From: an uncultured Spirochaetota bacterium
GTDB taxonomy: Bacteria; Spirochaetota; Brevinematia; Brevinematales; JAOACQ01
Reading direction: 5' to 3'
Assembly (NCBI GenBank): GCA_963796325.1
Contig: CAWCLF010000003.1
Coordinates: 470,788-534,787 of the forward strand
Length of the DNA: 64,000 bases
Each line of letters starts with the position of its first letter. Positions within the stretch are counted from its first letter, which is position 1. The position numbers and the translations under genes are program-made. This document shows positions 13,351 through 63,423 of the stretch, in pieces. The notes below the pieces were generated by a model. That model saw only the letters and a program-made list of their open reading frames with translations, was not told where the DNA came from and ran no database searches.

Positions 13351-13353
13351 CCG

Positions 13354-32050: not shown

Positions 32051-32123
32051 TATATTTATAACATTACAGACCCGTCATTTTTTTAATTTTAGAGCATCGC
32101 CGTTGAATAAGCAAATTTTACTT

Positions 32124-32216
32124 CGGTCGTCAGCCGACTGTCACAGTCGATAATGTGCAGTCATGTTATCCCTGAGGACTTTCGACTGATGACTGTTGAC
32201 TGACGACTGATGACTA
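32124..32216. repeat. Inverted 7-bp-unit repeat arrays (degenerate AGTCNNN arm / NNNGACT x6 arm)
   Basis: Right arm 32174-32215 reads gaggact ttcgact gatgact gttgact gacgact gatgact. The left arm 32124-32165 carries AGTC/GGTC units in the opposite orientation. Spacer ttatccct. Confidence 0.75.
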
Positions 32217-33029
32217 TATGTATCCGACGCCTTTAAAAAATGTATAAACGAAAACTCCGTCTTTGCCGGCCGTCCTGTACAGGTCCCTTATTCCCTTGTT
32301 GAAATCATTTTCATCGATTATGGAACTTTTAAGCGCCTCTTCCCTGATACCCTCGATCATGGCGGTAAACGTGTTTATTGTGAAGCCTTCGACCATCTCA
32401 GGCCTGCCGGGATCTGCATAAACGGTCCTCGTGCCGACCCTGCAGTTTTTGTAGCCCGCCGATTCGAGAAGTGGATAAATCTGCCTGCCGACAAGGGCGT
32501 TGCCGCCTTTCCGGGCCTGCAGGATCACCTGGGCCTCGATCGCTTTCCTTGCATAGGTGCTGTCCGGGTAAAAGAAGGCCGAGCCATGGTCTCCCTCGAT
32601 CACGGTGACGGTCCCGCCCTTTTTAAGGACCCTTTTTACGGACAGGAGGGCTGCGACAGGATCGGGCAGGTGTTCAAGAACAAAGCATATCAGGATATGG
32701 TCGAATGCGGAATCTTCGAAATCAAGTCTGTTGATGTCCCCTTCAAGGAGAGAGACGTTCTTTATTCCCTCTTTTTTAAGCATTGCCGCTGCTTTTGACA
32801 GGGATTCCACGGATATATCCATTGAAACGAATTTTGAATCGGGGTTTTTTGGAGCTACTATTTTTGTCTGTGCGCCTGTTCCGCAGCCCGCTTCAAGTAT
32901 CAGCGAACCTTTTGGAAAGACGGTGTCGGAATGCAGGAGGTCGGACAGGCACTCAGCCTGGTCTCTAAGCCTCGAAGCTTCCCTTTCGGTGTAGCCATGC
33001 ACATAATTATCGTTCATATTTTTTACCAT
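32214..33029 (-). CDS. Class I SAM-dependent methyltransferase
   Basis: Motif I LEAGCGTGAQ and post-I acidic residue (SMDIS). Substrate unknown. Confidence 0.8.
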   Translation of the reverse strand: MVKNMNDNYVHGYTEREASRLRDQAECLSDLLHSDTVFPKGSLILEAGCGTGAQTKIVAPKNPDSKFVSMDISVESLSKAAAMLKKEGIKNVSLLEGDINRLDFEDSAFDHILICFVLEHLPDPVAALLSVKRVLKKGGTVTVIEGDHGSAFFYPDSTYARKAIEAQVILQARKGGNALVGRQIYPLLESAGYKNCRVGTRTVYADPGRPEMVEGFTINTFTAMIEGIREEALKSSIIDENDFNKGIRDLYRTAGKDGVFVYTFFKGVGYI

Positions 33030-36538: not shown

Positions 36539-36622
36539 CTTGTACCGGCTTGTCCGGTGCTTGTACCGGCTTGTCCGGTGCTTGTACCGGCTTGTCCGGT
36601 GCTTGTACCGGCTTGTCCGGTG
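36539..36622. repeat. Perfect tandem repeat, 4 x 21 bp (gcttgtaccggcttgtccggt)
   Basis: Units at 36539-36559, 36560-36580, 36581-36601 and 36602-36622. Each unit is two ~10/11-bp sub-repeats (cttgtaccgg / cttgtccggtg). Degenerate half-units follow at about 36630 and 36647. Confidence 0.95.
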
Positions 36623-38289: not shown

Positions 38290-40386
38290 TCACTCCCCTT
38301 TTACGTTTCCATTCATGTCGAACATGACTTCTGAACCTGCCGGATAAACCGTGCCGCCGATCTTCGTATCGTCAGAAAGCGTTCCCTTATAGAGCCTTCC
38401 GTTTTCATAAAAATACAATACGGTCCATTTCTGGAATGTAATGCCTTTGATTTTCGTATCGTCCCGGAGCGTTCCGCTTTTGAGCGCTCCCGAAGGGTAG
38501 AAACTTGCGTAGCTTGTTTTCCTGAAGACTATGTCCTGGCCTTCGCCCTTTAGATAGCTGTCTTCCTCGAGCATGCCGTTGGATAACGTTCCGGATTCGT
38601 ACAGCGTGATCTCGGATCCCTGCCTGAATGCCGTTTCATAAAGGGTGGTGCTGCGCGCAAGGATCCCGCTTCTGACCTTACCCGACCTGTAGAAAGATAC
38701 AGGCCCCGAATATTCGATATCCTGCAGGACAGTTTCATGCGACAGCACCGCACTCTGGACTTTACCGGTATCGTAAAATGAAATGCCGGGCAGATAGATA
38801 TCTGAGGCCTTGCCGCTTTTATCGAAGCCGTTCGTGACCGTTTTAATTAAAGGCTTGAAAGTCACGCCTTCGATGACCTCGGTTTCCCCGGCCAGGGAAC
38901 CGTTTGAAACAATCCCGTTTGAATAGAAGGTGACGACCGTTCCATCCCTGAATACGATAGGGCTGTAGATTTTCATAAGCTCCTGGTCGCCCGACAGGGT
39001 CCCGGATTCGACCTGACCGCCGCGGTAAAACATGATGCTCGTATTCGAAAGGAATTTTATTTTTTTAACGGCAAGGTCCCCGGCTGATAGAGCGTTTTCC
39101 AGCGTCCCCCCTTCATAAAAGCCGACAGGCGTTCCGGCCTCGAACGTGACGCCATGGTCGATCTCGCTTTTGCCCAGCGTCCCGGCCTTTGCCGTTCCGT
39201 CGGGATAAAAATCGACTTCGCATCCGCCCTTGAAAAGCCTGCCGCCGGCGGTTAAATCGGCTTCCGGGGTTCCCGATATCACTTTCCCCTTTTCGTCGAA
39301 GGCGATTTTAAAGCCGTCTTTCCATGCAATCCCGCCGATAACTGTCCCGGCCGAAAGCGTCGCGGACATCACTCTGCCGTTCTCAAAAAAATTTATTTCT
39401 TCGTAGCCCTTGCATGGGGCCCCTTTTATGAGCGAGTCGGCATACAGAACTGCGCTCCGGACCGTTCCGGATTTAAAGAATGTTATGGGGTTTTGCCCCC
39501 TGTAGAGCACTCCGTCTATCCTTGCGTTTTCCGCAAGCTCCATTTTAAGGGGAAGGATCATCTGGCCTGATTTTGAAAGATTGAGCGTCGTCCCGGTCTC
39601 TATTTTCATATGACGCATCCGGATAGATGCCGCGAGGGTCCCGCTTTTAGGTTTTCCGCCGGAATACACGGCGATCTGTTCGTTGCCCCTGAAGGGAATG
39701 CCGCTATAAAGCATGTCCCTGCCGATCTCGATCCTGTCAGGATATACAGGCGCTCCTCCCGAGCCGAACAGGACTTCGGCGCCCTTGTAGAACGGCAAGC
39801 CGGCGATCATAGTATCCCCGGCAAGGGAAACGCTCAAAAGGGCGCCCGAATCGTAAAAACGCACTTCAGAATCCGCCGGAACATTGATTCCATCGATCGG
39901 AGTATCTTTCGCCAGAGTGCCGAAGCTCACATTGCCCGAATCGTAAAAATAAGTATCCATATTCGCTTTAAAATCGATCCCTTTGAATACCGTGTCCTCT
40001 GCAAGCTCCATTTTCGGAGGCATAATAACCCTCCCGTCGCCGGAAAAGGCGAGCGACAATCCGGCCGGGAAAAGTATTCCCTGGATGCGCGTATCGGAAT
40101 CGATTTTTACGGCCGCGATCTTTTTATTTTTAAGATAGATCTCGGTGTAAGGATGGAATTTTATCCCCAGGATTTCCGAATCATCGGTAAGCTTTATATA
40201 GATGAGGTTGCTCCTGGCGTCTATAGCGACTTCCGAACCCTCTTTCAGGAAAAAGCCCTGGTAAGTCCTGTCCTTTTTTAAGGTTATTACAGGCCCGTCG
40301 AAGGGGAATAAAACCTGCGCCGCAAGCGTCAGGATTATGAAAACAAGAATGACTGTCGACTGCCGACTATTGACTGTTGACTTCAT
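38290..40386 (-). CDS. Secreted repeat protein built from ~30-aa units (..I.GI.F..GT.V.FY.SG.L.SGTL..DT..)
   Basis: ATG 40386, preceded by a GGGGGAA RBS 10 nt after the upstream stop, is preferred over the track start at 40449. Signal-like N-terminus MKSTVNSRQSTVILVFIILTLAAQ. More than 20 tandem degenerate repeats. Paralogous to the upstream gene. Confidence 0.65.
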   Translation of the reverse strand: MKSTVNSRQSTVILVFIILTLAAQVLFPFDGPVITLKKDRTYQGFFLKEGSEVAIDARSNLIYIKLTDDSEILGIKFHPYTEIYLKNKKIAAVKIDSDTRIQGILFPAGLSLAFSGDGRVIMPPKMELAEDTVFKGIDFKANMDTYFYDSGNVSFGTLAKDTPIDGINVPADSEVRFYDSGALLSVSLAGDTMIAGLPFYKGAEVLFGSGGAPVYPDRIEIGRDMLYSGIPFRGNEQIAVYSGGKPKSGTLAASIRMRHMKIETGTTLNLSKSGQMILPLKMELAENARIDGVLYRGQNPITFFKSGTVRSAVLYADSLIKGAPCKGYEEINFFENGRVMSATLSAGTVIGGIAWKDGFKIAFDEKGKVISGTPEADLTAGGRLFKGGCEVDFYPDGTAKAGTLGKSEIDHGVTFEAGTPVGFYEGGTLENALSAGDLAVKKIKFLSNTSIMFYRGGQVESGTLSGDQELMKIYSPIVFRDGTVVTFYSNGIVSNGSLAGETEVIEGVTFKPLIKTVTNGFDKSGKASDIYLPGISFYDTGKVQSAVLSHETVLQDIEYSGPVSFYRSGKVRSGILARSTTLYETAFRQGSEITLYESGTLSNGMLEEDSYLKGEGQDIVFRKTSYASFYPSGALKSGTLRDDTKIKGITFQKWTVLYFYENGRLYKGTLSDDTKIGGTVYPAGSEVMFDMNGNVKGE
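40349..40383. repeat. Single-arm 7-bp-unit array (NNGACTN x5) inside the 5' end of a CDS
   Basis: GACT at 40351, 40358, 40365, 40372 and 40379, an exact 7-bp register. Encodes KSTVNSRQSTV of the downstream repeat protein. Confidence 0.8.
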
Positions 40387-47249: not shown

Positions 47250-47334
47250 AATGCCTCCGACATTGGTTTTATTAAAACAAGCTTATATTAAAGTAACTAT
47301 CGCGGGATAAAATATCAAATCCGCTAGATCTGAC

Positions 47335-47425
47335 GGTAGTCGTCAGTCGTCAGTCTGCAGTCGACGGTCGGCAGTGGATAGTTTATAATGTCGACTTTCG
47401 ACTGCCGACTGCTGACTTTCGACTG
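47335..47425. repeat. Inverted 7-bp-unit repeat arrays: (NNNAGTC)x6, 14-bp spacer, (NNGACTK)x5
   Basis: 47335-47376 reads ggtagtc gtcagtc gtcagtc tgcagtc gacggtc ggcagtg. Spacer gatagtttataatg. 47391-47425 reads tcgactt tcgactg ccgactg ctgactt tcgactg. Confidence 0.9.
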
Positions 47426-50016: not shown

Positions 50017-50940
50017 ATGGATCAGAATAAGGAAGCGGTGCAGCTTTCCCGTCTTCTGAAAAGCCCTGCACCACAGCATGTAATCTCGGAAGTCAAAAAG
50101 ATTTTCCAGTACTCCTACCCGTCACATTCCTTCTCGAAAATCCTGAGTAATTTCAAGAATATCGTCAATCTCTTCGACGGGAAATTCCCCGGATACCAGG
50201 CCTGCAATACTATGTACCACAATCTCGGCCATACGCTGGACGCCCTGCTGGCCGCAGCCCGCCTTGCCGACGGCTACAACCTTTCGTCCGGAAACATGAG
50301 CTGCGAAACCATGGTAGACCTTCTTCAGGCAGCCCTCTTCCACGATACGGGTTATATACTCGAGGACTGGGACAGGACCGGGACCGGCGCCAAGTACACG
50401 AAAAGCCATGTCGAAAGAAGCATGATGTTCATTCAGAAGAACAGGCCTGCCCTCCAGCTTGACAGCAGGGAAGTCGCCGTTATATCGAGGATAATTTCCT
50501 GCACGGGGCTCCAGGTAAACTGGAAGGATATCCCCTTTAACAGCCGGGACGAGGAGATAGCGGGCGCGATACTCGGTACGGCCGACCTTTTAGGCCAGAT
50601 GTCCGACAGGTTTTACCTTGAAAAACTGCACTACCTTTACGACGAATTCAGGGAAGCCGGCATACAGGGATATGATACCGAATTCGATATAATACAGAAA
50701 ACTGCGTTTTTCTACAAGATGACGACCGACAGGTTTTCAAGCGATCTTATGAACGTAAACGAGTATGCGAAGGTTCATTTCAGGGCGAGGTTCGGGATGG
50801 ATTCCAACCTCTACATGGAATCGATATCCAGGCACATCGATTACCTGAAGGGAATCATCGAGGACAGCACTTCGAACTTCAGGAACAAGCTCAAGCGGAA
50901 AGCTGCCTATATACCTCTTTATTACAGCCAGGCGCACTGA
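50017..50940 (+). CDS. HD-domain metal-dependent phosphohydrolase
   Basis: H...HD signature: HNLGHTLD followed by FHDTGY. Specific function unknown. Confidence 0.7.
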   Translation: MDQNKEAVQLSRLLKSPAPQHVISEVKKIFQYSYPSHSFSKILSNFKNIVNLFDGKFPGYQACNTMYHNLGHTLDALLAAARLADGYNLSSGNMSCETMVDLLQAALFHDTGYILEDWDRTGTGAKYTKSHVERSMMFIQKNRPALQLDSREVAVISRIISCTGLQVNWKDIPFNSRDEEIAGAILGTADLLGQMSDRFYLEKLHYLYDEFREAGIQGYDTEFDIIQKTAFFYKMTTDRFSSDLMNVNEYAKVHFRARFGMDSNLYMESISRHIDYLKGIIEDSTSNFRNKLKRKAAYIPLYYSQAH

Positions 50941-50955
50941 CGTCTGTCGGCAATC

Positions 50956-51086
50956 GAAAGTCGGCAGTCGACAGTCAACTTCAGTCAAGAGTCGAGAGTC
51001 GAGAGTGACATTTGCCGGTAAATAATTGCCGGTTGTTTGTTAATCAGCACTCGTTCTATACGACTGTTGACTGTTGACTGTTGACT
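50956..51086. repeat. Inverted 7-bp-unit repeat arrays flanking a 46-bp core, between convergent genes
   Basis: AGTC at 50959, 50966, 50973, 50983, 50990 and 50997. The core contains ttgccggt twice (51012 and 51026). GACT at 51062, 51069, 51076 and 51083 (cgactgt tgactgt tgactgt tgactg). Confidence 0.9.
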
Positions 51087-52074
51087 GAGGTAAGAGCCCG
51101 ACTTTTTTGTAAACCTTCCCGAGCGTTTTGCCGGAGATTTCCGAGGCCTTTGCCGCCCCTTCCCGAGCGGTCCTGAGTAAAAATTCCTTGTCTTTGCGGA
51201 ATTCCGCGTAGCGGCACCGCACAGGCGCGAACAGCCTCTCGATCGATTCGGCCAGGTCTTTCTTGAAAACAGCATAACCTTTGCCGGAATACCCGGCGGC
51301 TATCTCTTCCATCGGAAAGTCCCTCACGCTACTCATAATTGTCATCAGGTTGAAGATGCCCGAGCCGTCGTCCTTCAGGGGGTAATCTGCGCCGCTTCCC
51401 GTAACGGCGCCCTTAATCTTGCGGCCGATCTCCTCGGGGCTGTCCAGGACTGATATATAATTCCGCTCGTTGGCGTCGGATTTGTCCATCTTCTGGGACG
51501 GATCGAGAAGTTTTTTTATGCGGCCGCCGCTTTTCAGCACCATGGCTTCGGGCACCGTGAAAACAGGTCCGAAGCGGTTGTTGAAGCGCAGCGCGATGTC
51601 GCGGGCCAGTTCCACATGCTGGCGCTGGTCCTCCCCTACCGGGACGATATCGGTATCGTAAAGGAGTATGTCGCCCGCCATGAGAACGGGGTAGGTATAG
51701 AGGCCCGCATTGATATTTTCAGGATTTTTTTTGGATTTATCCTTGAACTGGGTCATGCGGTTAAGCTCCCCCGTATAAGTGAAGCATCCCAGGATCCAAG
51801 CAAGCTCCGCGTGCGCGCTTACATGAGACTGGAAGAATACAATGCTCTTATCCGGGTCGATCCCGCATGCCAGGAACAGCGCCATGTAATCGAAACAGCG
51901 GGACCTGAAACCGGCGGGGTCCTGCAGTGTCGTCATCGAGTGAAGATCGACGATGGAAAAGACGCAGTCGTATTCGTCCTGCATGGCTACCCAGTTCCTG
52001 ACCGCGCCGATATAGTTGCCTATTGTCATGACGCCCGTCGGCTGTATTCCGCTGAACACCCTTTTTTTTGCCAT
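51040..52074 (-). CDS. trpS: Tryptophan--tRNA ligase
   Basis: GIQPTG plus TIGNYIG (HIGH-equivalent) and KMDKSD (KMSKS variant). The last ~16 codons (..PQSTVNSQQSYRTSAD) are encoded by the heptamer array. Confidence 0.93.
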   Translation of the reverse strand: MAKKRVFSGIQPTGVMTIGNYIGAVRNWVAMQDEYDCVFSIVDLHSMTTLQDPAGFRSRCFDYMALFLACGIDPDKSIVFFQSHVSAHAELAWILGCFTYTGELNRMTQFKDKSKKNPENINAGLYTYPVLMAGDILLYDTDIVPVGEDQRQHVELARDIALRFNNRFGPVFTVPEAMVLKSGGRIKKLLDPSQKMDKSDANERNYISVLDSPEEIGRKIKGAVTGSGADYPLKDDGSGIFNLMTIMSSVRDFPMEEIAAGYSGKGYAVFKKDLAESIERLFAPVRCRYAEFRKDKEFLLRTAREGAAKASEISGKTLGKVYKKVGLLPQSTVNSQQSYRTSAD

Positions 52075-52191: not shown

Positions 52192-52211
52192 AACTGACCC
52201 GGCAGTTAAAT

Positions 52212-52299
52212 GGAGAGATGCCCGAGCGGTCGAAGGGGGCACCCTGCTAAGGTGTTGTACCCCATAAGGGTACCGAGGGTTCGAATCCCTCTCTCTCCG
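52212..52299 (+). tRNA. tRNA-Ser (anticodon GCU), class II with long variable arm
   Basis: Hand-folded. Acceptor GGAGAGA/TCTCTCC. Anticodon stem GCACC/GGTGT with loop CTGCTAA (GCT). Variable arm tgtaccccataagggtacc. T arm GAGGG-TTCGAAT-CCCTC. Discriminator G. No encoded CCA. Confidence 0.9.
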
Positions 52300-52567
52300 A
52301 ATCGAACTTACCGCCTAAATGTTGTATAGTCAACCACATCAACCCCGTGCTACGGAAAAATTAATTTTAGCGATCGAGAGGTAACAGTTTAAGGTAAAGA
52401 AGGATCGAATAGATGGGAAAAAGCAATAATTTGAATAAAAAGTAACATTTTTCTACGTGAAATATCAGATAATATATTCATTAAGAACTGGAAATTTAAA
52501 GAAAGAGAGCATAGTACTGGCGTGGTCATAGGACTAAGGTTAGAAATCGTAAGAGAGAATCCGTAAT

Positions 52568-53686
52568 TTAAGCCGGAAGCGCTGACAGCCTGTAGTAGTG
52601 ATGTACCAGTCCGCCGAGGATGGGTTTTGAGACAATCCTGCCTTCGGTTTGAGGAATATAGCCTTTGGGAACCTGAAGGCCGATGCCCTGGTGAGGCCGC
52701 AGGCTGTTGTAGTAATTAATATATTCAGCAAGGATATTCCGGAGCTGGTTCTCTGTGAATATTATAAACCAATCCAAGCATTGCCGGCGCAGTGTCCCGA
52801 CGAAACGCTCGGCGACGGGGTTCATATTGGGAGAATACGGAGAAATCCTGATATGTTTGAAATGGAAAAGCTTCCAGCAGAACCAGTAAAACTCGCCCGA
52901 GCCGTCGTGAAGAAGATAAGCTTTAGCAATTCCCATTTCCTCAAGTCTTTGCTCGAAATAATAGAACCGGTTTTTAAGGAATTGAATTGTCGGATGTTTT
53001 GTTACGGCGAACTGGATAATTTCCCTTGTCCGGTAATGGATAATGAAGAACACATAGAACCGGGAGCCTGAAAGTGAATCGACGGTAAGAAAATCGCAGG
53101 CGAACAGGGAACGGATATGAGAAGAAATGAAAACCTTCCAGGAGGGGAACGAAGGAATTTTACCTTGTTTTCTGAATTGGTATAGGACATTGCGGATGGT
53201 TTTCTCATCGAGATATATGCTTAGCTTATGAAGTTCTCCGAGTATGAAAAGAGGACCGCGAAGCGGGTTGTCGAGCTTTATTTGAAGAATAAGCTTCCGG
53301 ACATCGAGGGGAACAGGAGGCCGGCCGGGGGATGAAGCATCAGGTTTGAAAGTCCATCTTTTTTTAATAAGGATCTTGAACCACTTGAGGATTGCCGAAG
53401 GATGGACGATGGAAGAAAGATGCGGTTTAAAGCATTCTAACTGTGAAAGGACGATGAAGAAAATTCTGTCGAACCAATCGATGAAGGGATGTTTTTTTGA
53501 AGATCGTTTAAGTATTTCGATTTCTTTTTGAAGGCGGATATTGTCGATACGCAAATCAAGTATAATTTTCTCATATTCTGAAAGACTTCTGGCAGAGTGA
53601 TGAAACAAAGGTTTTAAAATGGAGAAGCAAAAGCTGTAGAAAAGGATGAAAAAGAGTTTAAACATGGTGGCCTTCCGATTTAACAA
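52568..53686 (-). CDS. rve/DDE integrase-type transposase (different family from the three-copy IS)
   Basis: Candidate D-D-E residues in FLTVDSL, LLHDGSGEF and NPVAERF. C-terminal YNSLRPHQGIG and GGLVHHYYR tail. IS ends not delimited. Confidence 0.75.
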   Translation of the reverse strand: MLNRKATMFKLFFILFYSFCFSILKPLFHHSARSLSEYEKIILDLRIDNIRLQKEIEILKRSSKKHPFIDWFDRIFFIVLSQLECFKPHLSSIVHPSAILKWFKILIKKRWTFKPDASSPGRPPVPLDVRKLILQIKLDNPLRGPLFILGELHKLSIYLDEKTIRNVLYQFRKQGKIPSFPSWKVFISSHIRSLFACDFLTVDSLSGSRFYVFFIIHYRTREIIQFAVTKHPTIQFLKNRFYYFEQRLEEMGIAKAYLLHDGSGEFYWFCWKLFHFKHIRISPYSPNMNPVAERFVGTLRRQCLDWFIIFTENQLRNILAEYINYYNSLRPHQGIGLQVPKGYIPQTEGRIVSKPILGGLVHHYYRLSALPA

Positions 53687-53818
53687 AAAATTCTTTTTTA
53701 TTTGATATAGATAGACGAAGAGTATAAAATAATCAGGTAAAACACTAAATTATTTTTACCCATGAATTATTTCTGTTAAAGTAAAAAATAGAAAAGTATT
53801 CGTTTTATAAGGGGATAC

Positions 53819-54079
53819 ATGAAAATTCACATTGAACCACACACACTTGAACGGGCGGAAGAAAGAGGAACAGACCGGGCTGAAATTATTGAAGTGATTG
53901 AAACAGGATTACCGGTAGAAGCTAAATACAAAAGAATAGGTAAATCGAAAATATTTAATTTTCAAAGACAGAGACTGGGCAAATATTATGAACAAAAGCG
54001 TGTCGAAGTATTTTATAATATTGAAAATGATGAAATTACCACCGTGACGGTATATGTGTTTTATGGTAAATGGCAGTAA
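53819..54079 (+). CDS. DUF4258-like small protein (putative toxin of a two-gene module)
   Basis: 86 aa. The N-terminal H..ERAEERG... pattern resembles DUF4258. Overlaps the next gene by 10 nt. Confidence 0.5.
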   Translation: MKIHIEPHTLERAEERGTDRAEIIEVIETGLPVEAKYKRIGKSKIFNFQRQRLGKYYEQKRVEVFYNIENDEITTVTVYVFYGKWQ

Positions 54080-54300
54080 AGGAGGAAAACATGCAAATAA
54101 TATATAATCCTGGCACAGACCTTTTATATATACGCATTGATGATAAAAAGCAGGATGTGATTAATCAGAGGGTAAGCGAGGAAATGGTGCTGGATATTGG
54201 CGAAGACAATAAAATTGTCGGCATCGAAATACTGGATGCTTCAAAAAGTGTGGATTTAGATAAAGTATTACCTATTAAATACAGTTATGAAAACTCGTAG
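54070..54300 (+). CDS. DUF2283-like small protein (putative antitoxin partner)
   Basis: YNPGTDLLYIRIDD...IVGIEILDASK matches my memory of the DUF2283 pattern (Y.D...D.LYI...G.EIL.AS). 76 aa. Confidence 0.55.
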   Translation: MAVKEENMQIIYNPGTDLLYIRIDDKKQDVINQRVSEEMVLDIGEDNKIVGIEILDASKSVDLDKVLPIKYSYENS

Positions 54301-54427
54301 ATGCGGCGAAGTAATATCTCAATTCTGTAATGAAAATGTAAGCCTTATTAATACGACAGCGCAGGAAGGGTCGTAATGAAGGCCTGCGGGGGCAGAAGGG
54401 AAACTTACAGGTACGACCAGCGTGACC

Positions 54428-55930
54428 AGCGGCACTGGGTGCGAATCTGAAGTAAAAGTCCAGGATTTTGGACTAAAGTAAATAGGCAGATATAAGGATA
54501 AAAAAGAGAAGAAAACACAGGCAATTGAAGGTTGTTTATAGAACTTAGGTAAAGCGAATGTGAAGCAAGGGTAAAAGAAGTCTCTTTAATGCCTTGATTT
54601 TACACAATCCCTGCTAAAACTGGCATATTGGGCAGGAAGCGATGCGGTTTTCCTGAATTCTTCTCAAACGTGCCAGCTCGAATTGAGATCGGATAAAATC
54701 AAGGTCGGGCAGTTTGCCTGAATAAGCCTCGGCGGGAGTCTGGTATTGATGGGCATGATGAGGGCGGACATGGTTGTATTCATGGATAACCTTCTCAAGA
54801 TATTTATCAAGGTCGTTTAGATCGCGGTACTGCCGCAGGAATAGCCAGGAGTATTTCAGGCTTTTATTCACGGCTTCGATCATGCTGTTTGAAAAACGGA
54901 TATGTTTTTGAGCGATCAGATGCTTTATGGTAATTTTATCCTCAAGGTATTGCTTTATTGTGTCGTTATCGTTTTCAGGACCTCCGTCGGTAAGGAAAAT
55001 GATATAAGGGTCTATGGTATCGCTTTGTTTTTTAACGATACTGGAATAAGCATCTTTAAGGTTTGAGAGAGCGATTTCAGCAGAAACACGGAGGGATACT
55101 TTATAGGAGATGACAAACCTGGAAAAGTTATCTGCGATAAGATAAATATAGGCGGTAAGTCCGTCCAATAGTTTCAGGCAGGTAATATCGGCGTGAATTA
55201 TCTCGTTAGGCCGGAAGGCCCTGATACCTTTAGATTGGCGCGGTTTTTTAAAACGTTTCCCGGTAAATCCGAATAACCTGGAATACTTGTACCATGAACC
55301 TCTGCCGATGAATAATGCTTTTAACCTGACGGCTTCGGAATGGACGGCATGGACAGGCCAGCCTGTGTATTTCGGATCAAGCAGAAATTTCTTCATAATG
55401 TTTAGCTCTGACCCTGAAACCTGGTTGGGCCAGACCTTGGGGCATTTATGGATGGGGGAGATAAGGCACCTGGCTTTGACCTGGACGGCCCAGTTGTAAA
55501 ATGTGGAGAGTTTAAGTTTAAAAAATCTGCAGGCCCTTTCAATGGGGATCTTAAAACGGTTGGAGAGGAAATAAACGGCTTTGACGGTCATGTTTTGAAT
55601 GTTATCAAGATAGCCGGAAGGCTTATGGATGAGGGAATCCTGTATTTTTTTATAAAAGCGATAGACATGGCATAGGATGGTAATAGTTATTATCAATTTT
55701 CTGGAATGAGCAAATGTCTTAACCAGAGGCAATAATTGAGATTGAAAATCCCTGTACTCATAACCGAATAGAGAAGAAAGGTTGTAATTCAAGAGATGGT
55801 AGTATGTGGATTTTGAAATCGTTGAGCGGACGGAATTGTAAGAAATAGAGCCTATCTGAAGGGCGAGAGTAAAGTTATGGTCGTATTTTTTATGAGAGCG
55901 CATAAGGGAAACTCCGAATGTTATTATTAT
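54428..55930 (-). mobile_element. IS element copy A (~1.5 kb, single 429-aa rve/DDE transposase)
   Basis: Boundaries are taken from where identity with copies B and C begins (AGCNNCACYGGGTGCGAATCTGAAG at 54428) and decays (~25-30 bp upstream of the ATG). Clear terminal inverted repeats not found by eye. Confidence 0.7.
54614..55903 (-). CDS. IS transposase, copy A (rve/DDE)
   Basis: Candidate D-D-E residues in IIHADIT, FLTDGGPEN and IEAVNKSLK. C-terminal YNHVRPHHAHQYQTPAEAY. About 20 aa differences from copy B by manual comparison. Confidence 0.85.
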   Translation of the reverse strand: MRSHKKYDHNFTLALQIGSISYNSVRSTISKSTYYHLLNYNLSSLFGYEYRDFQSQLLPLVKTFAHSRKLIITITILCHVYRFYKKIQDSLIHKPSGYLDNIQNMTVKAVYFLSNRFKIPIERACRFFKLKLSTFYNWAVQVKARCLISPIHKCPKVWPNQVSGSELNIMKKFLLDPKYTGWPVHAVHSEAVRLKALFIGRGSWYKYSRLFGFTGKRFKKPRQSKGIRAFRPNEIIHADITCLKLLDGLTAYIYLIADNFSRFVISYKVSLRVSAEIALSNLKDAYSSIVKKQSDTIDPYIIFLTDGGPENDNDTIKQYLEDKITIKHLIAQKHIRFSNSMIEAVNKSLKYSWLFLRQYRDLNDLDKYLEKVIHEYNHVRPHHAHQYQTPAEAYSGKLPDLDFIRSQFELARLRRIQENRIASCPICQF

Positions 55931-56024
55931 CCGCCGAAGGGTTGTGGAAATAGGCTCTGACCCGGCAGACTGTCAGGATAGCAACGGGAAGGCGGGTGAA
56001 ATAGATGGGCTGTGTTATGAGTTG

Positions 56025-56405
56025 CTATTCATCCAGCAGTTTTATAACGTTCTGAGTGTTGATAAAGTTATTAAAGCCTTTTTTCGGCAAATTTTCAATG
56101 AGTGCTTTATCATTGGTCCATAATGGATAACCGAATTCAACACAGAGAGCAATAAAAGGTGTGTCTTTTTCATCAATTCCCTTACAAAGTTCAATAGCTT
56201 TATCGTAGGCGAATTTTCTGACAGCAATTTTTGGAATTATTATAATTTCCTCGAAAAGATTTTTGATGAACAATCTAAAATCAGAGATCGGCAGTTTCCT
56301 TTTCTTTAAAATGACATCTTCGTATTTTTCAAGTTCTTTCAGGGCAAAGTCAGGCATGTAAAAATGAATTTTCTTAACCAGTTCAATATATCTCCGGTTG
56401 CCCGG
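56025..56405 (-). pseudogene. PIN-domain protein, 5'-truncated by IS copy B
   Basis: C-terminal PIN pattern IDEKDTPFIALCVEFGYPLWTNDKAL. The frame runs without a start into the IS-B terminus at 56406, and the N-terminal segment with the first catalytic Asp is missing. Confidence 0.6.
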
Positions 56406-57908
56406 AGCAACACCGGGTGCGAATCTGAAGTAAAAGTCCAGGATTTTGGAATAAAGTAAATAGACAGATATAAGGATAAAAAAGAGAAGAAAACACAGGC
56501 AATTGAAGGTTGGTTATAGAACTTATGTGAAGTGGAAGTGAAGCGAGTGTAAAAGAAGTCTCTTTAATGCCTTGATTTTACACAATCCCTGCTAAAACTG
56601 GCATATTGGGCAGGAAGCGATGCGGTTTTCCTGAATTCTTCTCAAACGTGCCAGCTCGAATTGAGATCGGATAAAATCAAGGTCGGGCAGTTTGCCTGAA
56701 TAAGCCTCGGCGGGAGTCTGGTATTGATGGGCATGATGAGGGCGGACATGGTTGTATTCATGGATAACCTTCTCAAGATATTTATCAAGGTCGTTTAGAT
56801 CGCGGTACTGCCGCAGGAATAGCCAGGAGTATTTCAGGCTTTTATTCACGGCTTCGATCATACTGTTTGAAAAACGGATATGTTTTTGAGCGATCAGATG
56901 CTTTATGGTAATTTTATCCTCAAGGTATTGCTTTATTGTATCGTTATCGTTTTCAGGACCTCCGTCGGTAAGGAAAATGATGTAAGGGTCTATTGGATTG
57001 CTCTTATTTTTAACGATACTGGAATAAGCATCTTTAAGGTTTGAGAGAGCGATTTCAGCAGAAACGCGGAGGGATACTTTACAGGAGATGACAAACCTGG
57101 AAAAGTTATCTACGATAAGATAAATATAGGCGGTAAGGCCGTCCAATAGTTTCAGGCAGGTAATATCGGCGTGAATTATCTCGTTGGGCCGGAAGGCCCT
57201 GATACCTTTAGATTGGCGCGGTTTTTTAAAACGCTTTCCGGTAAATCTGAATAACCTGGAATACTTGTACCATGAATCTCTGCCGATGAATAATGCTTTT
57301 AACCTGACGGCTTCGGAATGGACGGCATGGACAGGCCAGCCTGTATATTTCGGATCAAGCAGAAATTTCTTCATAGTGTTAAGTTCGGATTCTGAAAGCT
57401 GGTTAGGCCAGACCTTCGGGCATTTATGGATGGGGGAGATAAGGCACCTGGCTTTGACCTGGACGGCCCAGTTGTAAAAAGTGGAAAGTTTAAGTTTAAA
57501 AAATTTGCAGGCCCTTTCAATGGAAATCATAAAACGGTTGGAGAGGAAATAAACGGCTTTGACGGTCATGTTTTGAATGTTATCAAGATAGCCGGAAGGC
57601 TTATAGATTAGTAAGTCCTGTATTTTTTTATAAAAGCGATAGACATGGCATAGGATGGTAATAGTTATTATCAATTTTCTGGAATGAGCAAATGTCTTAA
57701 CCAGAGGCAATAATTGAGATTGATAATCCCTGTACTCATAGCCGAATAGAGAAGAAAGGTTGTAATTCAAGAGATGGTAGTATGTGGATTTTGAAATCAT
57801 TGAGCGGACGGAATCGTAAGAAATAGAGCCTATCTGAAGAGCGAGGGTAAAGTTGTGGTCGTATTTTTTGTGAGAGTGCATAAAAAAACTCCGGTTATTT
57901 TATAGAAA
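56406..57908 (-). mobile_element. IS element copy B
   Basis: Same terminus (agcaacaccgggtgcgaatctgaag) and internal sequence as copy A; same orientation. Confidence 0.7.
56592..57881 (-). CDS. IS transposase, copy B (rve/DDE)
   Basis: 429 aa, ~95% identical to copy A by manual comparison. Confidence 0.85.
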   Translation of the reverse strand: MHSHKKYDHNFTLALQIGSISYDSVRSMISKSTYYHLLNYNLSSLFGYEYRDYQSQLLPLVKTFAHSRKLIITITILCHVYRFYKKIQDLLIYKPSGYLDNIQNMTVKAVYFLSNRFMISIERACKFFKLKLSTFYNWAVQVKARCLISPIHKCPKVWPNQLSESELNTMKKFLLDPKYTGWPVHAVHSEAVRLKALFIGRDSWYKYSRLFRFTGKRFKKPRQSKGIRAFRPNEIIHADITCLKLLDGLTAYIYLIVDNFSRFVISCKVSLRVSAEIALSNLKDAYSSIVKNKSNPIDPYIIFLTDGGPENDNDTIKQYLEDKITIKHLIAQKHIRFSNSMIEAVNKSLKYSWLFLRQYRDLNDLDKYLEKVIHEYNHVRPHHAHQYQTPAEAYSGKLPDLDFIRSQFELARLRRIQENRIASCPICQF

Positions 57909-58342
57909 TTTGGCATAAAAATAGATAAGAATATAAAATAAAAGCAACGGATATGCAATTATTTTTATCGGTCATGGTTATAGGAATAAGGATAGTCAGA
58001 TTATCCCCGCATTACGAGGAAGCGTAATGAGGCTGCGAAACGAAGTGAGCATAGCCGAATTATCACTGAGCGATAGCGAAGGGATAGAGCCGCCGGCGAA
58101 AAACGGCAGTAAGCGGGCGGACTGTTTGAGGGACTTTTTGCCATTTACAATACGAATCTTATTTTTTACAAAGATTCGGCAATAAGATTTTAGCAAAAAG
58201 TACCGAGTTCCGCCCGCAGCCGTTTTGAGCCTGTGCGGCTCAAGCTTCTGAGTACAGCGGGGAAAGTTTTCTTTCTGGTTCGCTTTCTTTTGCTTTTTCA
58301 AAAGAAAGCGAACGGTACTACGACCCCTCCGCCGGAAGGTTT

Positions 58343-60127
58343 ATGACCACAGACCCCATAAGCGACCCGTCGAGGCGGTACTCGCCCGCGGGGCTCAACA
58401 GGTACGTTTACTGCTACAACAGGCCGCTGTATTATACCGACCCGGAGGGAAGGTGGTACCTCGATTTAGGAATCATCGGGATAGGAAACGACGATACTAC
58501 AGGAAACTTCATATTCGGCGTAGGGTTCGGTTTAAGCAATTTTGTCTGGCAACAGGACAGCAGCGGGAATATTTCGAACTACCAGACTTTCGTGGGGCTT
58601 AACATAGCCAACCAGAAGCTCGGAATAGGATACAGCTATGACGAAAAGGCATTATATGACGAGGAAGAATTATCATTCGGAATACAATATTACTGTTTCA
58701 ATGCCAATATCAGTTTTTATCACAAGAAGACGTGGAACAGCAAAGAAGAATGGTGGAGCGTGAGCGGCAGCGCGGGAATCAGCTATGAAGGGATAGGTGT
58801 CGGAGCTGAGGCGGGGATCAGCTCATATACCAACAGCCAGGGACAAACGAAAAAAACCAGCGATATGGGGGTGTACGCGGGTTATAACGAAAACGGCGTA
58901 TTGGTAGGCGTTAATGCACAGTGGAACTATGACACTTACGGGATGTATACGGGAATGAATTTGGGCGTGAGTATAGGCTCTACTTTTGATGGCGGCAACG
59001 GCGAATTATCTTTCGGAACCAACGCATACTTTGACGCTCAGGGGAGATTCATTGGAATTACCGGATCTGTTTCAATACAGCATAGCATTAGTGCTTACGG
59101 CGTAAATATCGGCAGCGGAAGCTTCGGCCTGACCTTTGGAAATGTAAACGGCGGCTGGGTACTGGGGGGCGGAATCAATCTTAATCCGGGAGTGAATCTT
59201 GACAATATGGCGAATGCCGAAGCAGCAAAGATGCCGTATAGTACAAGGCAGACCCTCATAAGTGCAGGAGTGACCCTGCCTGAGTATGGGATAGGGTCGC
59301 CTAACGGGGCAAACTTACCCGGTTTCAACGACTGGCTGATGTTACAGCCTCAGGAAGGTCAAATCAGCACAAATGTTGATACAGGTCAGCAGTATATATA
59401 TCAAAATGGAGAATGGGTTAATTATAATAAGAATTTGAATAATTCAGGAAGTATAATAGAAGTATCACAAACTCAGACAATATCTCTTGAAGAAAATGCT
59501 TCCAAAGCATATGAAAATTTAATGGAGGCTGTAAAATCACAGGATCATGATCCAGATGATATTGTGGGAATAATGTTTTTGAATAAAGAAAAAGATGTTT
59601 CTGGCTTTGGCCATAATGCGATTGCTTTTATTTACGCGGATGGGTCGGTTGATATTTATTCATACAGAGCCACTAATACTGATGATTTTACTATTTTATT
59701 AGGATCAAATGTTCCTGCTACAATGGATAAAAATCATTATGAGGCAGATGATTTTAGTACATTTTTATCTACACAACCACCGAATGACAAATCTTATAAC
59801 CGCTATATAATGATTCCTGTCGATGCAGAATCGGGACAGGCAATGTTAAACAGAGCAGAAGATTATCATATTAACGCTGGTACATATAACATAGTAGGAC
59901 ATAATTGTGAACATGTAGCACAGGACATACTTTCTTACGGCGGCCTCAGTTTTGCTCCGACAAAAAGCGATCAAAATGATGTAAATATATATTTATATGG
60001 ATTTCCTTCCGCAGTTTATAATTATTTTATTTCAACAGGTACGATACCGAACTCTGCGTATAATATAGGTGTAAATGTTGCAAATTTTGAGGGATGGAAT
60101 TTCGGATATATAGGAGTACCAAAATGA
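58343..60127 (+). CDS. Orphan Rhs/YD-repeat C-terminal tip with polymorphic toxin domain (LRAT/NlpC-P60-like His...NCEH)
   Basis: The frame is open from 58229. 58313-58460 encodes RYYDPSAGRFMTTDP...NRYVYCYNRPLYYTDPEGRW, the last YD repeat and the Rhs core end motif. No Rhs repeats lie upstream. A Gly-rich ~300-aa region is followed by GFGHNAIAFIYADG ... YNIVGHNCEHVAQDI. Confidence 0.7.
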   Translation: MTTDPISDPSRRYSPAGLNRYVYCYNRPLYYTDPEGRWYLDLGIIGIGNDDTTGNFIFGVGFGLSNFVWQQDSSGNISNYQTFVGLNIANQKLGIGYSYDEKALYDEEELSFGIQYYCFNANISFYHKKTWNSKEEWWSVSGSAGISYEGIGVGAEAGISSYTNSQGQTKKTSDMGVYAGYNENGVLVGVNAQWNYDTYGMYTGMNLGVSIGSTFDGGNGELSFGTNAYFDAQGRFIGITGSVSIQHSISAYGVNIGSGSFGLTFGNVNGGWVLGGGINLNPGVNLDNMANAEAAKMPYSTRQTLISAGVTLPEYGIGSPNGANLPGFNDWLMLQPQEGQISTNVDTGQQYIYQNGEWVNYNKNLNNSGSIIEVSQTQTISLEENASKAYENLMEAVKSQDHDPDDIVGIMFLNKEKDVSGFGHNAIAFIYADGSVDIYSYRATNTDDFTILLGSNVPATMDKNHYEADDFSTFLSTQPPNDKSYNRYIMIPVDAESGQAMLNRAEDYHINAGTYNIVGHNCEHVAQDILSYGGLSFAPTKSDQNDVNIYLYGFPSAVYNYFISTGTIPNSAYNIGVNVANFEGWNFGYIGVPK

Positions 60128-60157
60128 TAGCGATATATTTTTGGTTTTTAATGTTAT

Positions 60158-61024
60158 TTGCTGCAGAAAAAAATAGTATTTGTTAAAAGCTTACCGGGTG
60201 AGGTAATTTTACCGAATATATCAACAAATGATGATACCGGAATTCTGATAATTAATATGCATGATGGAACGGAACGTCAGATATTGAAAGGGCTTAAATT
60301 TACCCTGGGCGAATGGAACAGAGATAAAAAAAAGATATTATTGTTTAATGATTATTATATTTCAGGCTTTGTCACCAGTTCTGATTATTCTGTATTTGAA
60401 TACGATATTGAAAAGAGTGTTATGAGGCCTATACTTAAAGAGGTTCATTATACTTCTAGACATGAAATAAATTACGAAAGAATCCGTTATATACCTGGCA
60501 AAAATGCAATAAGTTATATTTTTGCTGATGGTTATAAATTACATGATTATAGAAATTACCTTCATATTTATGATCTTGATAGGAAAAAAGATGAAAAGTT
60601 GTTTAGAACATCTAGTTATTATTCATGGGATTCTAACGGTACATCGATTTACTATAATCCAATGAAAGCATATGCTGTTGATAATCATATATTTGAATAT
60701 AACGTTATGACGAAAGAAACAAAAGAACTATTTACAGGTTATACTCCCGAATGTTCTCATAATGGCGAATACATTGCTTATACCAAATATAACGGAGATC
60801 TTGTAGTGAGAGAAATGAAAAACGGGAAGGAATGGCCGATAATGATTGAGGGTTATAATTACCTCTTTTCACCTGATGATAAGTATATAATGTTAAGTAA
60901 AGATTGGAATGAATTGCCTATAGAAAAAGCGAAACAAGTACTATATTACGAATTCAAAACCGGAAAGAGTGGTATATTTATATATGATCGTTCTGGAAAA
61001 GTAAATTGGTATGATTGGAATTGA
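60158..61024 (+). CDS. Candidate immunity protein, beta-propeller-like (PD40/TolB-type degenerate repeats)
   Basis: Lies directly downstream of the toxin. Repeats such as HNGEYIAYTKYNGDLVV and FSPDDKYIMLS. The track start is TTG. An ATG at 60124 in another frame encodes a TM-like 20-mer, separated from this frame by an A7 tract. Confidence 0.5.
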   Translation: MLQKKIVFVKSLPGEVILPNISTNDDTGILIINMHDGTERQILKGLKFTLGEWNRDKKKILLFNDYYISGFVTSSDYSVFEYDIEKSVMRPILKEVHYTSRHEINYERIRYIPGKNAISYIFADGYKLHDYRNYLHIYDLDRKKDEKLFRTSSYYSWDSNGTSIYYNPMKAYAVDNHIFEYNVMTKETKELFTGYTPECSHNGEYIAYTKYNGDLVVREMKNGKEWPIMIEGYNYLFSPDDKYIMLSKDWNELPIEKAKQVLYYEFKTGKSGIFIYDRSGKVNWYDWN

Positions 61025-61773
61025 ACGCAAAAGCAATGATTTTCTCGTACTCTACTAAGAAAATAATTTTAAGTAATAAAAGAAATTGAAGGGCTTATTC
61101 CAGCAGAAATTCAGTAGTAAAACTGCCCAATGTTGTAATACACATAACGCACAAAATGTGAATGGGAGCAGTCACGCAATTCAGTCCCATTTGGAGTGAT
61201 ATATTATTGTTATCTAATGAGATAAAAAGATCAATCGCAGTCCCTTTCCAAGATAAAATACGAGAATATTGCATAAAATATGGTAGTATTAACCGCTTAT
61301 ATAGAGCATTTTAACCATAAAATGGGACTATTGTGCGGGTAGAAGTCCCACATGTAAACGGCTCCCTGGAGGCACATAAATTCGAGGACAGGTATCGAAT
61401 TTATGTTGGGAAACATAACGCACAGCGGTGTATGAGATATCAGGCCCTGATGAATATTGTAGGGATCTTGAGCGATTTAGGATGACACTATACGCAACAG
61501 CAATGCGTGTTATAACTTCATAAATATCAATATGTTTACAAAAACCGCCGGTATTTGTAACTCCATCTTCCGGTATGAAAGCATCGGGTCAAAAGTGGAC
61601 CCTAATTGTATATATGCCGGATAGTTCAACCGATATTTTGATATGATTTCCAGGGGGAGGGTTGACTGCGAATAGGCTGCGGAGACAGGCTCTAACCCGG
61701 CGGCCCGAGAGGCGGGCAAAGGGATATCGAGGGCTTTCTAAACGACAATATTTTGCAGGAATTGAGGACAATG

Positions 61774-62235
61774 TTATTTAGAAAGCAGTTCTTCGGGGGA
61801 ATGAACGGTAATTTCTTTATAAATCTCGAAGTCTTTTTTATCGTAAGTAAGGATGTTTTTGATTCCATTTTCCAGCATAGTAGCCGTGATTGCGGCATCG
61901 TGGATATTTTTACCGGAGATTTGATATTTTTCGGCAATTTTCATGAGCCGTTCAATAGTTTCAATTTCGATGTTTAAAACCTCGAAGTTTTGCCTGAACT
62001 CTTTGACCTTCCGGTTTGCCTCTTTTATTGGCAGAGGATTTTTGAGGAATTTCTTATTAGTTGAAACCGAGAGAAACTCTCTTATTATCTGTGTAGAAAT
62101 GAAAAGATGATGCTGACTTTCAACCAACTGCCTTAATATCTCAACGGAACTTGAATATTTTATGGGATCGAAGTCTTCAAGAGAAGCGTATACGAGGATG
62201 TTAGTATCGATAAAAAGCTTAGATTCTCGGTTCAT
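61774..62235 (-). CDS. vapC: PIN-domain toxin (VapC-like)
   Basis: N-terminal KLFIDTNILVYA with catalytic Asp; later HDAAITATM. ATG 62235 is preferred over 62334 and overlaps the upstream antitoxin gene by 17 nt. Confidence 0.75.
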   Translation of the reverse strand: MNRESKLFIDTNILVYASLEDFDPIKYSSSVEILRQLVESQHHLFISTQIIREFLSVSTNKKFLKNPLPIKEANRKVKEFRQNFEVLNIEIETIERLMKIAEKYQISGKNIHDAAITATMLENGIKNILTYDKKDFEIYKEITVHSPEELLSK

Positions 62236-62443
62236 AAATGTCTTCCCTGGTAAAGTCTTGAATTTTACCGCCGCATTTGAAAGTAGTCCAATGGAATTTA
62301 GTCTTCTTTTTCGTTGTTGACACTTCATTTCCAAGGACGACTACTTCAGCTTTGCGATTGAACAAATCGCGCAATTTTGCGGGGAGGACGATCTTGATTT
62401 CTCCTTCATGATTGATATTTACATCAGTTTTATATGCCAGCAT
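62219..62443 (-). CDS. vapB: AbrB/SpoVT-type antitoxin (VapB-like)
   Basis: 74 aa with a swapped-hairpin-like segment GEIKIVLPAKLRDLFNRKAEVVVLG. Immediately upstream of, and overlapping, the PIN gene. Confidence 0.6.
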   Translation of the reverse strand: MLAYKTDVNINHEGEIKIVLPAKLRDLFNRKAEVVVLGNEVSTTKKKTKFHWTTFKCGGKIQDFTREDIYEPRI

Positions 62444-62456
62444 TTTACAGCTCCCA

Positions 62457-62798
62457 CTATTTCGAGTAAGCCACTTTAGCTTTAGTGTCTCTTAAAAAAG
62501 CGTCTAAAACGGTCAAAATATGCTGTTTTTCCTGTTCGGGTAAATGCTCAATTTGGGAAAGCCTATCGAGCATTTTCTTATCTTTCAATTCGGTCAGGAG
62601 GTCGTTTTCATCGACCAGATAGTCGATACTGACATCCAGGGAATCTGCTATTTTTTTAGCTACTTCGATTGAAGGTTTTATTTCATTCCGTTCATATCTG
62701 CCTACAATCGGGCCGCTAGTGCCTATCTTTTCCGCGAGTTCTTGCTGGGACCATCCTTTTTGCTTTCTAAGCATAAAAACTTTATCTCCAAACCTCAT
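62457..62798 (-). CDS. XRE-family helix-turn-helix transcriptional regulator
   Basis: HTH_3 pattern LRKQKGWSQQELAEKIGTSGPIVGRYERNEIKPSIEVAKKIADSL. Confidence 0.85.
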   Translation of the reverse strand: MRFGDKVFMLRKQKGWSQQELAEKIGTSGPIVGRYERNEIKPSIEVAKKIADSLDVSIDYLVDENDLLTELKDKKMLDRLSQIEHLPEQEKQHILTVLDAFLRDTKAKVAYSK

Positions 62799-63013
62799 AA
62801 AATCACCTATTTATATCAGATTGCACTTAAAATCTCTTATATTAGTAATTTTACATCATAAATATTATTTAGTCAACACTTTTTGGATACACATTAATGA
62901 ACAGGTATTGTAACGCAAATGATGTAAAAAATATTATTCGAACATAAAAATGTAACGTTTGGGTTATATTTAGAATCAAAATAGCTTCAAAAAAATATTT
63001 TTAGGAATATTAT

Positions 63014-63423
63014 ATGAAAGTGATAGTATTCAGCAATCAAAAGGGCGGAGTGGGTAAGACCACGACCACGAGAGAATTAGGGATTTACCTTGCGGAAAAG
63101 AGTTATCGTGTGTTATTAATCGACGGGGACCCGCAGGCGAACCTTTCTAAAAGCCTTGTGGATAATCCAGGCTTCGGTCTATACGAAGCCTTGAGCGGCG
63201 GGGAATGCGAGCCGGAGGACGTTAAATTGAATTTATCCTTACTCTCCGGGGGGATAAAGCTTGCGGGGCTTGAAAAGAGCCTGATCGGGGAGCTGGGCGC
63301 GTTTACCCGCCTGCGGGACTTATTGGAGCAGGAAATTTTCCGGACCTATGACTTTATACTGATAGACAGCCCACCGTCATTGGGGGTGCTTACAGGCAAC
63401 GCCTTGACTGCCTCCGGCTGCCA
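63014..63423 (+). pseudogene. parA: ParA/Soj-type partition ATPase, 3'-truncated by IS copy C
   Basis: Deviant Walker A NQKGGVGKTTT and IDGDPQANLS. The reading frame runs into the IS-C terminus at 63424 and stops at 63451. Only ~137 native residues remain. Confidence 0.75.

Follow-up and report, generated by a model that had tools for sequence, protein, structure and literature searches.

An inverted pair of AGTC-core heptamer arrays at the convergent ends of an HD-domain gene and trpS in a Brevinematia-like spirochete

Among the long simple-sequence repeats of prokaryotes, those with a unit of seven nucleotides are the most frequent, and polymerase slippage has been proposed as their cause, according to the summary of Mrazek 2007 given in PMC4679880. 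In Xanthomonas, GGGAATC heptamers (GGGGA(C/T)T in Nostoc) with one or more variable positions are dispersed over the genome, mostly between genes (Rehm et al. 2015, PMC4692102). Each Xanthomonas genome holds 70-75 inverted heptamer pairs capable of forming stem-loops, and the repeats show a strong bias to lie within 50 bp of a stop codon or to overlap one; their unit number differs between related species, and they have no established function (PMC4692102). The 7-bp STRR repeats of cyanobacteria form hairpins between hupS and hupL that possibly stabilise transcripts, and a role in transcript stability or translational coupling has been suggested for them (PMC2670836). The TAACTGA repeats of marine Beggiatoaceae, which have a patchy distribution across phyla, overlap the stop codons of upstream genes (MacGregor 2015, PMC4679880). 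With one inverted case in 170, nearly all of them are direct; most lie a short way upstream of a start codon, and "reverse" copies encode the extreme N- or C-termini of the otherwise conserved proteins MurG and an ABC permease (PMC4679880).

Here we describe an element of this general kind in a window of 64,000 nt, the whole stretch of DNA that was analysed, located between an HD-domain gene on the + strand and trpS on the - strand, two convergent genes whose stop codons are 99 bp apart. The HD gene (50017..50940, +) encodes a 307-aa protein of the Pfam PF28239 Npun_R2479 family, and its TGA stop (50938-50940) opens the first of three degenerate in-phase units, TGACGTC TGTCGGC AATCGAA (50938..50958, +). 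The initial annotation had the element begin at 50956, just after the HD stop; the phasing in sevens moves the start back to 50938 and takes in the stop itself. The left side consists of two sub-arrays split by TTC, namely sub-array A, AGTCGGC AGTCGAC AGTCAAC (50959..50979, +), and sub-array B, AGTCAAG AGTCGAG AGTCGAG (AGTg) (50983..51006, +; 94% matches in TRF), with AGTC at 50959, 50966, 50973, 50983, 50990 and 50997 on the + strand, each at the position first assigned to it. A unique, non-repeat core of 52 nt (51007..51058) then carries a small hairpin, the last trpS codons, (Y)RTSAD, and the trpS stop. The two copies of ttgccggt reported in this core are indeed there, at 51012-51019 and 51026-51033; since TTGCCGG is 2.6-fold over-represented across the window on both strands (33 observed vs 12.5 expected, mostly within genes), its double occurrence is less special than it looks. 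The right arm was likewise recovered as described, cgactgt tgactgt tgactgt tgactg on the + strand with GACT at 51062, 51069, 51076 and 51083; read on the - strand it comprises three copies of AGTCAAC and one AGTCGTA (51059..51086; 3.7 copies, 100% matches in TRF), and it lies inside the trpS ORF.

The periodicity of these arms exceeds chance by far: AGTCN3AGTCN3AGTC has 16 matches in the window vs 0.00 expected from 100 shuffles, AGTC forms chains of 6 at 7-nt spacing, GACT forms chains of 4-5, and TRF calls period-7 arrays in the element at 50946-50976 (period 7/14), 50983-51006 and 51062-51087. The element therefore has the form of a heptanucleotide long simple-sequence or STRR-type repeat, a 7-nt unit repeated head-to-tail in at least three copies, and also that of a Xanthomonas-type inverted pair, with arms of the same unit close together on opposite strands and 77-93% complementary.

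The predicted RNA folds of the element differ between the two strands. The + strand (HD-sense) fold reaches -73.4 kcal/mol (z -7.3) and the - strand (trpS-sense) fold -50.2 kcal/mol (z -3.2), the latter being weaker because G-U pairs become C-A mismatches on the other strand. The two left sub-arrays compete for the one right arm: sub-array A, its best complement (86%, 93%), pairs with it in the - strand fold, and sub-array B pairs with it in the + strand fold through G-U pairs and with one mismatch per heptad. Hairpin mismatches are confined to the variable triplets, and the AGTC/GACT cores are always paired. Our scan for promoters and terminators returned one promoter-like site at chance level and one weak terminator-like site, on the + strand only, where the small hairpin GCCGGTAAATAATTGCCGGT (51014-51033, +) within the core is followed by TGTTTGTT. 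The initial proposal that the element may act as a bidirectional terminator is not supported by this analysis. Instead of a GC-rich stem-loop with a U tract in both senses, we found a T-rich tail behind the small hairpin on the + strand only and no U tract after the large hairpin in either sense, with none at all in the trpS sense; moreover, sister elements lie between divergent genes and inside an N-terminal coding region, as described below. Some protection of 3' ends, mainly that of the HD transcript, would be plausible. An Rfam scan of the whole window at gathering score matched only a tRNA-Ser at 52212-52299 and nothing at the element, and it gave no T-box or other leader upstream of leuS.

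The trpS gene (51040..52074, -) encodes 344 aa, with a conserved catalytic body followed by a tail after ..KKVGLLP. As initially reported, its TAA stop (51040..51042, -) falls within the element, between the two arms and in the core. The predicted protein ends ..KKVGLLPQSTVNSQQSYRTSAD* (predicted C-terminus ..QSTVNSQQSYRTSAD). The final 16 residues had been taken to be repeat-encoded; codon positions assign about 9-10 of them to the right arm, which encodes (Q)STVNSQQS(Y), and RTSAD and the stop to the non-repeat core. How the gene can read into a repeat in this way follows from the frames of the unit. In (AGTCAAC)n there is no stop in any frame, and all three frames give the same heptapeptide cycle; the complement, (GTTGACT)n, has TGA in all three. 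Each arm turns its AGTC sense towards the gene that reads into it, so that in a pair with an AGTC arm followed by a GACT arm the open sense comes first on both strands and a gene arriving from either side ends only in the core. The right arm, stop-free in its AGTC sense, is thus read as part of trpS, and translation would end with the first stop codon that the core offers. An equivalent open-strand/stop-strand logic has been described for TAACTGA repeats (PMC4679880). When we simulated 0-7 AGTCAAC units, the trpS ORF always closed within the element, with tails of 7-40 residues after GL: LPQSYRTSAD without any unit, LPQSTVV with one, 33 residues with two and 17 residues with the three units actually present. 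Changes in repeat length therefore cannot inactivate TrpS, and the protein could be lengthened without harm because it is the open strand of the repeat that the gene meets, with a stop a few codons further on in each frame.

The last ~16 residues of TrpS, initially suspected to be unique, are so among its homologues. Within the best 120 TrpS homologues of a search of 5.8 billion proteins, only the identical sequence spans the last ~15 residues; the other 119 have 94-97% query coverage, and none covers the tail. The cluster of the window protein has one member, and in 18 aligned orthologs TrpS ends 2-13 residues past the conserved GL. Judged from these alignments, the TrpS tail is lineage-specific. 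An assembly or sequencing error that shifted the trpS stop was considered and ruled out: an independent Logan assembly from run ERR10755942 (L002) matches the element letter for letter, although it possibly derives from the same sample and so checks the assembler rather than the biology, and the ORF closes inside the element at every unit number.

The closest relative, represented by a 5-kb contig (L001), has 76% nucleotide identity in trpS and 80% amino acid identity in TrpS. It carries the convergent HD/trpS pair without the repeat, the two stops being 12 bp apart, and its TrpS ends ..EKVGLII* at 329 aa vs 344 aa in the window, with an HD protein of 307 aa in both. In other relatives, the HD gene does not adjoin trpS. 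The array is thus absent from the closest relative and the tail absent from the homologues, which upholds the initial suggestion that an element was gained here together with a new trpS tail. That the element itself created the whole tail is a stronger statement and holds in part. Two histories agree with the data. In one, all of the ~144 bp was gained and the former trpS stop was overrun. In the other, the core could be an ancestral spacer with a small terminator and an ancestral 10-residue tail, the arrays having grown on both sides of it; the trpS-side array could then be an in-frame 21-nt (7-aa) insertion that did not displace the stop. Either history makes at least 7 TrpS residues products of the repeat, in a protein that exceeds its closest ortholog by 15 residues, but the part of the tail that the core encodes may be ancestral. 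A lone AGTCAT overlaps the trpS stop of the closest relative (L001 2822-2836; ..ATT TAA GTC ATT..) and could be an array seed or a coincidence.

The history of trpS itself may be separate from that of its neighbourhood. Besides the closest relative, its best homologues are from Firmicutes at no more than 58% identity, and the neighbouring leuS matches Brevinematia/Spirochaetota at 72-78%. On these matches, trpS looks like a horizontally acquired gene, or xenolog, so that a second trpS copy elsewhere in the genome is possible and the "essential" status initially given to this gene is assumed.

The element is one of a family. AGTC-core heptamers occur at four loci within 20 kb of the window (32k, 40k, 47k and 51k) and share the unit AGTCRNC; two of the loci lie between genes, one adjoins a stop codon and two extend over the end of an ORF, as is typical of a dispersed repeat family. 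Across 40 phased units the consensus AGTC-R-N-C holds 1.3-1.8 bits per position in the core and 0.3-0.8 bits at the last three positions, and deviations were found at 12 of 160 core positions vs 50 of 120 tail positions, counts that carry some ascertainment bias because the unit phase was chosen on AGTC. The variable triplets of neighbouring units are no more alike than those of units from different loci (p = 0.16, at low power). Outside the arrays, AGTC/GACT is mildly avoided, at 0.8 of the Markov expectation, and it is normal in a relative. No other substantial period-7 arrays were found in the window. It does contain, at 36537-36622, a perfect 21-nt tandem repeat of TGCTTGTACCGGCTTGTCCGG (4.1 copies, 100% identity) in a 540-bp gap without a long ORF, with two degenerate half-copies after it; this repeat is unrelated to the heptamers.

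The sister loci differ in their setting. At 47334..47425, inverted AGTC and GACT arrays around a loop of about 17 nt lie between divergent genes, upstream of leuS, and are predicted to fold into a hairpin of -52.5 kcal/mol (z -6.0). In the element at 32116..32215 (-), an array of six units begins precisely where a methyltransferase gene (32214..33029, -) ends, so that the TAG stop of this gene forms part of unit one (T-AGTCATC); the arm opposite, at 32116-32162 and upstream of a SpoIIE/HATPase regulator gene, is weak and degenerate. The third sister, at 40351..40382 (-), is a single arm of five units that encodes residues 3-12 (STVNSRQSTV) of a MORN-like protein that bears a signal peptide (38290..40386, -). 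The ATG of this gene at 40386 precedes the array, and a strong GAGGGGG Shine-Dalgarno sequence lies upstream of it. The protein starts MKSTVNSRQSTV.., and its longer N-terminal stretch, MKSTVNSRQSTVILVFIILTLAAQVLFPFDG.., can be set against that of the ortholog in the relative L123 (L123 1521-1820), MKKIILSAMFLSFFTCIYPFEG.., which opens MKKIILSAMF.. (MKKIIL.. vs the array-containing start), has no array and is collinear with the window protein afterwards. By this comparison, the 40-kb array has added about nine residues to the N-terminal, signal-like region of the MORN-like protein, and this N-terminus is a second, independent case of an array-encoded protein terminus.

Arrays in coding sequence raise the question of contingency (phase-variation) loci, in which gain or loss of a 7-nt unit would switch the frame and hence the expression or form of a protein. 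The unit length is not a multiple of 3, unit number alters the TrpS tail (7, 10, 14, 17, 33 aa and so on), and the array at 40351-40382 occupies codons 2-12 of the secreted MORN-like protein; because a one-unit change at 40351-40386 would frameshift that whole gene, it is a candidate phase-variable locus. At trpS, though, every frame ends within the element and leaves no on/off switch, the arrays are short and their units heterogeneous, which would slow slippage, and a housekeeping synthetase is an improbable target. As an account of the element, phase variation therefore seems to us extremely unlikely.

The LeuRS of the window is nearest to Brevinematales/Brevinematia (Spirochaetota), with named matches at 72-73% identity and others up to 78%, and about 22 kb around leuS was compared in each of the relatives L123/L124 (LeuRS 78%), L125/L126 (76%) and L127 (73%). 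Neither AGTC heptamer arrays nor notable period-7 arrays were found in L001 and L123-L127 (~95 kb, five relatives). In L001 the neighbour of the HD gene is an NHL-repeat gene and not leuS, so the leuS-upstream element has no counterpart to compare there. In one relative, L125/L126, a restriction-modification cassette (12504-15731) composed of two N6/N4 methyltransferases and a DpnII-like endonuclease lies between leuS and the HD gene. The absence of arrays from the relatives indicates that the heptamer family is a recent, lineage-specific acquisition, and its gain at trpS may have been by in situ growth or by insertion, the trpS DNA of the closest relative being just 76% identical.

Insertion would be expected of a non-autonomous mobile element, REPIN- or MITE-like, with the arms as terminal inverted repeats and a transposase encoded elsewhere. 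The hairpin architecture would suit such an element, as would the occurrence of the inverted kind at two or more loci and of single arms at two more, all absent from relatives, and the ~144 bp gained at a junction that measures 12 bp in the relative. REPINs have a dedicated RAYT transposase (PMC3116915). The three hairpin-type elements, however, align through their heptamer arms alone: the copies share only the heptamer periodicity, their loops or cores differ in sequence and in length (17 vs 52 nt), with the long core exclusive to the 51-kb element, and both the number of arm units and the variable triplets change from copy to copy. No target-site duplication is convincing, the "ACTGA"-like end strings being part of the units, and a 21-mer scan of JGI metagenomes found no related copy of the core, its one match being an unrelated high-GC contig without other similarity. 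The transposase genes that the window does contain are of the rve IS type and sit apart from the arrays, in a low-GC block that has none. Neither in the alignment of the three elements nor in the window did we thus find the shared terminal and internal sequence, target duplication and cognate transposase that mark a MITE or REPIN, and we hold a mobile origin to be quite unlikely.

The surroundings of trpS have features of their own. A tRNA-Ser(GCT) gene lies beside it at 52211-52300, and right past this gene begins a block (52500-64000) with a GC content of 35-44% vs ~50% elsewhere and no heptamer arrays. This block holds several rve-family transposase genes, including two copies of equal length (429 aa; 54614..55903 and 56592..57881), and probably represents an island, or a cluster of IS elements, next to a tRNA gene.

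Arrays of this type are found well beyond the spirochete. A scan of 185,579 species genomes for three AGTCRNN units followed by AGTC gave at least 120 loci; the present genome is not among the matches listed. Among these, about a third of the loci are cyanobacterial, and the other phyla represented are Acidobacteriota, Planctomycetota, Bacteroidota, Chloroflexota, Gemmatimonadota, Omnitrophota, Spirochaetota and others. At 11 of the 120 listed loci an AGTC array is followed within 150 nt by a GACT array, the opposite order being seen at 2, and the inverted AGTC...GACT pairs among them typically start 4-9 nt past the stop of a co-directional gene. Among the 140 arrays in the listed matches, 51 are situated no more than 40 nt past a stop codon, by a crude stop call, 37 of these with AGTC in the gene sense vs 14 with GACT and with a peak of array starts from -2 to +10 nt of the stop, and 20 of the 140 lie inside ORFs. 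AGTC is not a universal heptamer core, an idea we ruled out: 13% of 193 other period-7 arrays in the listed loci contain it, vs about 5.5% expected by chance on our own estimate. A Spirochaetota MAG (L024) carries three AGTC(R)(N)A arrays within 4.3 kb (2277-2294, 2643-2700 and 4190-4214), two of which begin a few nt past stop codons, with near-identical flanks (TGAAGACAGTCGAAAG).

These distributions bear on the possibility that the element works as RNA or DNA and is under selection, whether as a bidirectional terminator or stabiliser of the 3' ends of the convergent HD and trpS transcripts, or as a set of AGUC sites at 7-nt spacing for a binding protein, much as a cold-shock-domain or S1-type protein has been proposed to bind TAACTGA repeats (PMC4679880). 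Consistent with selection, the hairpin is predicted to be strong, a T-rich run comes after the inner hairpin on the + strand, the units keep their AGTC core and vary in the spacer, and, among the matches listed, arrays abut stops across phyla with the preferences for AGTC sense and for inverted-pair polarity given above. The heptamer repeats of Xanthomonas coincide with the beginnings or ends of transcripts more often than control repeats do (PMC4692102), and stabilisation of transcripts has been proposed for the STRR hairpins (PMC2670836). Against this stand the large hairpin without a U tract on either strand, the positions of the sister elements in a divergent promoter region and a coding N-terminus, which do not fit one common function, and the relatives that manage with 12 bp between the same genes; there is no Rfam match either, and we identified no candidate binding protein. 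On balance, we regard a selected function as unlikely.

We consider it likely that the element is an inverted pair of AGTC-core heptamer arrays belonging to a lineage-specific family at gene boundaries, the counterpart in a spirochete of the STRR and Xanthomonas repeats. On this explanation, the arrays would grow and shrink by slipped-strand mispairing, and the three perfect AGTCAAC copies in trpS would be the freshest expansion, 21 nt long and in frame. The C-terminus of TrpS presumably tolerates such extension because it is naturally variable in length. Once transcribed, the arms would form a long imperfect hairpin that may protect or define the 3' ends of both convergent mRNAs, mainly that of the HD gene, an effect that would probably be a by-product and not the reason for the element.

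Slippage and neutral decay leave the contrast between the conserved AGTC core and the varying 3-nt tails unexplained, and they likewise do not account for the tightness to stop codons and the AGTC-first arm order. In view of the conserved core with its variable triplet, the 11 vs 2 loci for arm order and the 37 vs 14 stop-adjacent arrays among the matches listed, we leave a place for a bolder and distinctly improbable idea: that the arrays are made or maintained by a sequence-specific process, be it a nuclease, a recombinase or a selected RNA- or ssDNA-binding protein, that reads AGTC/GACT at 7-nt spacing. If this were true, such a process would, across a wide range of phyla, place arrays at stops in one set polarity, the AGUC arm 5' and the GACU arm 3', and, as a side effect, would rewrite protein termini, those of housekeeping enzymes included.

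Under the likely explanation, comparison at this locus shows in clean form how a labile simple repeat can enter a housekeeping gene at its end, and the trpS and MORN-like cases together present heptamer repeats as a source of new protein termini. The same termini are an annotation pitfall in metagenome-assembled genomes. The practical importance of the element is modest, its function being putative. Our findings extend the heptamer-repeat hairpins of cyanobacteria and Xanthomonas to a Brevinematia-like spirochete, and because the acquisition is recent, this lineage is useful for asking how heptamer families start.

How closely the element matches each known system can be stated feature by feature. 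Like the Xanthomonas pairs, it consists of convergent 7-nt arrays with variable positions near a stop codon; unlike them, it has the unit AGTCRNC and a spirochete host, and its array lies 20-45 nt within an ORF and demonstrably lengthens the protein. As AGTCRNC units lack G3 runs, G-quadruplex formation does not apply, and the G tracts with a preference for four units that characterise the Xanthomonas type are not seen here. The likeness to cyanobacterial repeats extends to the unit. Mazel et al. 1990 are said to have defined STRR3 as CAACAGT and STRR1 as CCCCAGT; on this definition STRR3 would be a cyclic permutation of AGTCAAC, the unit of the trpS-side arm, and STRR1 would contain AGTC as well. 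In both cases, dispersed heptanucleotide tandems form hairpins between genes, but the STRR families were defined in heterocystous cyanobacteria and the window belongs to a spirochete. Since LeuRS places this host close to Brevinematia, the element is not an STRR in the strict sense and the resemblance is one of kind only, and with the arrays missing from its close relatives, nothing points to an origin shared with STRRs. With the TAACTGA repeats the element shares one all-stop and one open strand, the overlap with a stop codon and the coding of protein ends; it differs from them in its unit, AGTCRNC, and in the arrangement of its arrays as an inverted pair. REP/BIME and REPIN sequences are intergenic hairpin repeats at gene ends, able to stabilise upstream mRNA, and Rickettsia palindromic elements (RPE) are in-frame insertions in coding genes that add peptide segments; each of these families conserves a sequence of 20-150 nt per copy, whereas the window elements conserve only a 4-nt core at 7-nt spacing. 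The element is, in sum, a heptamer-repeat hairpin of an already known kind; it agrees with that kind in all structural features tested and differs in its unit, its host and its depth inside an ORF.
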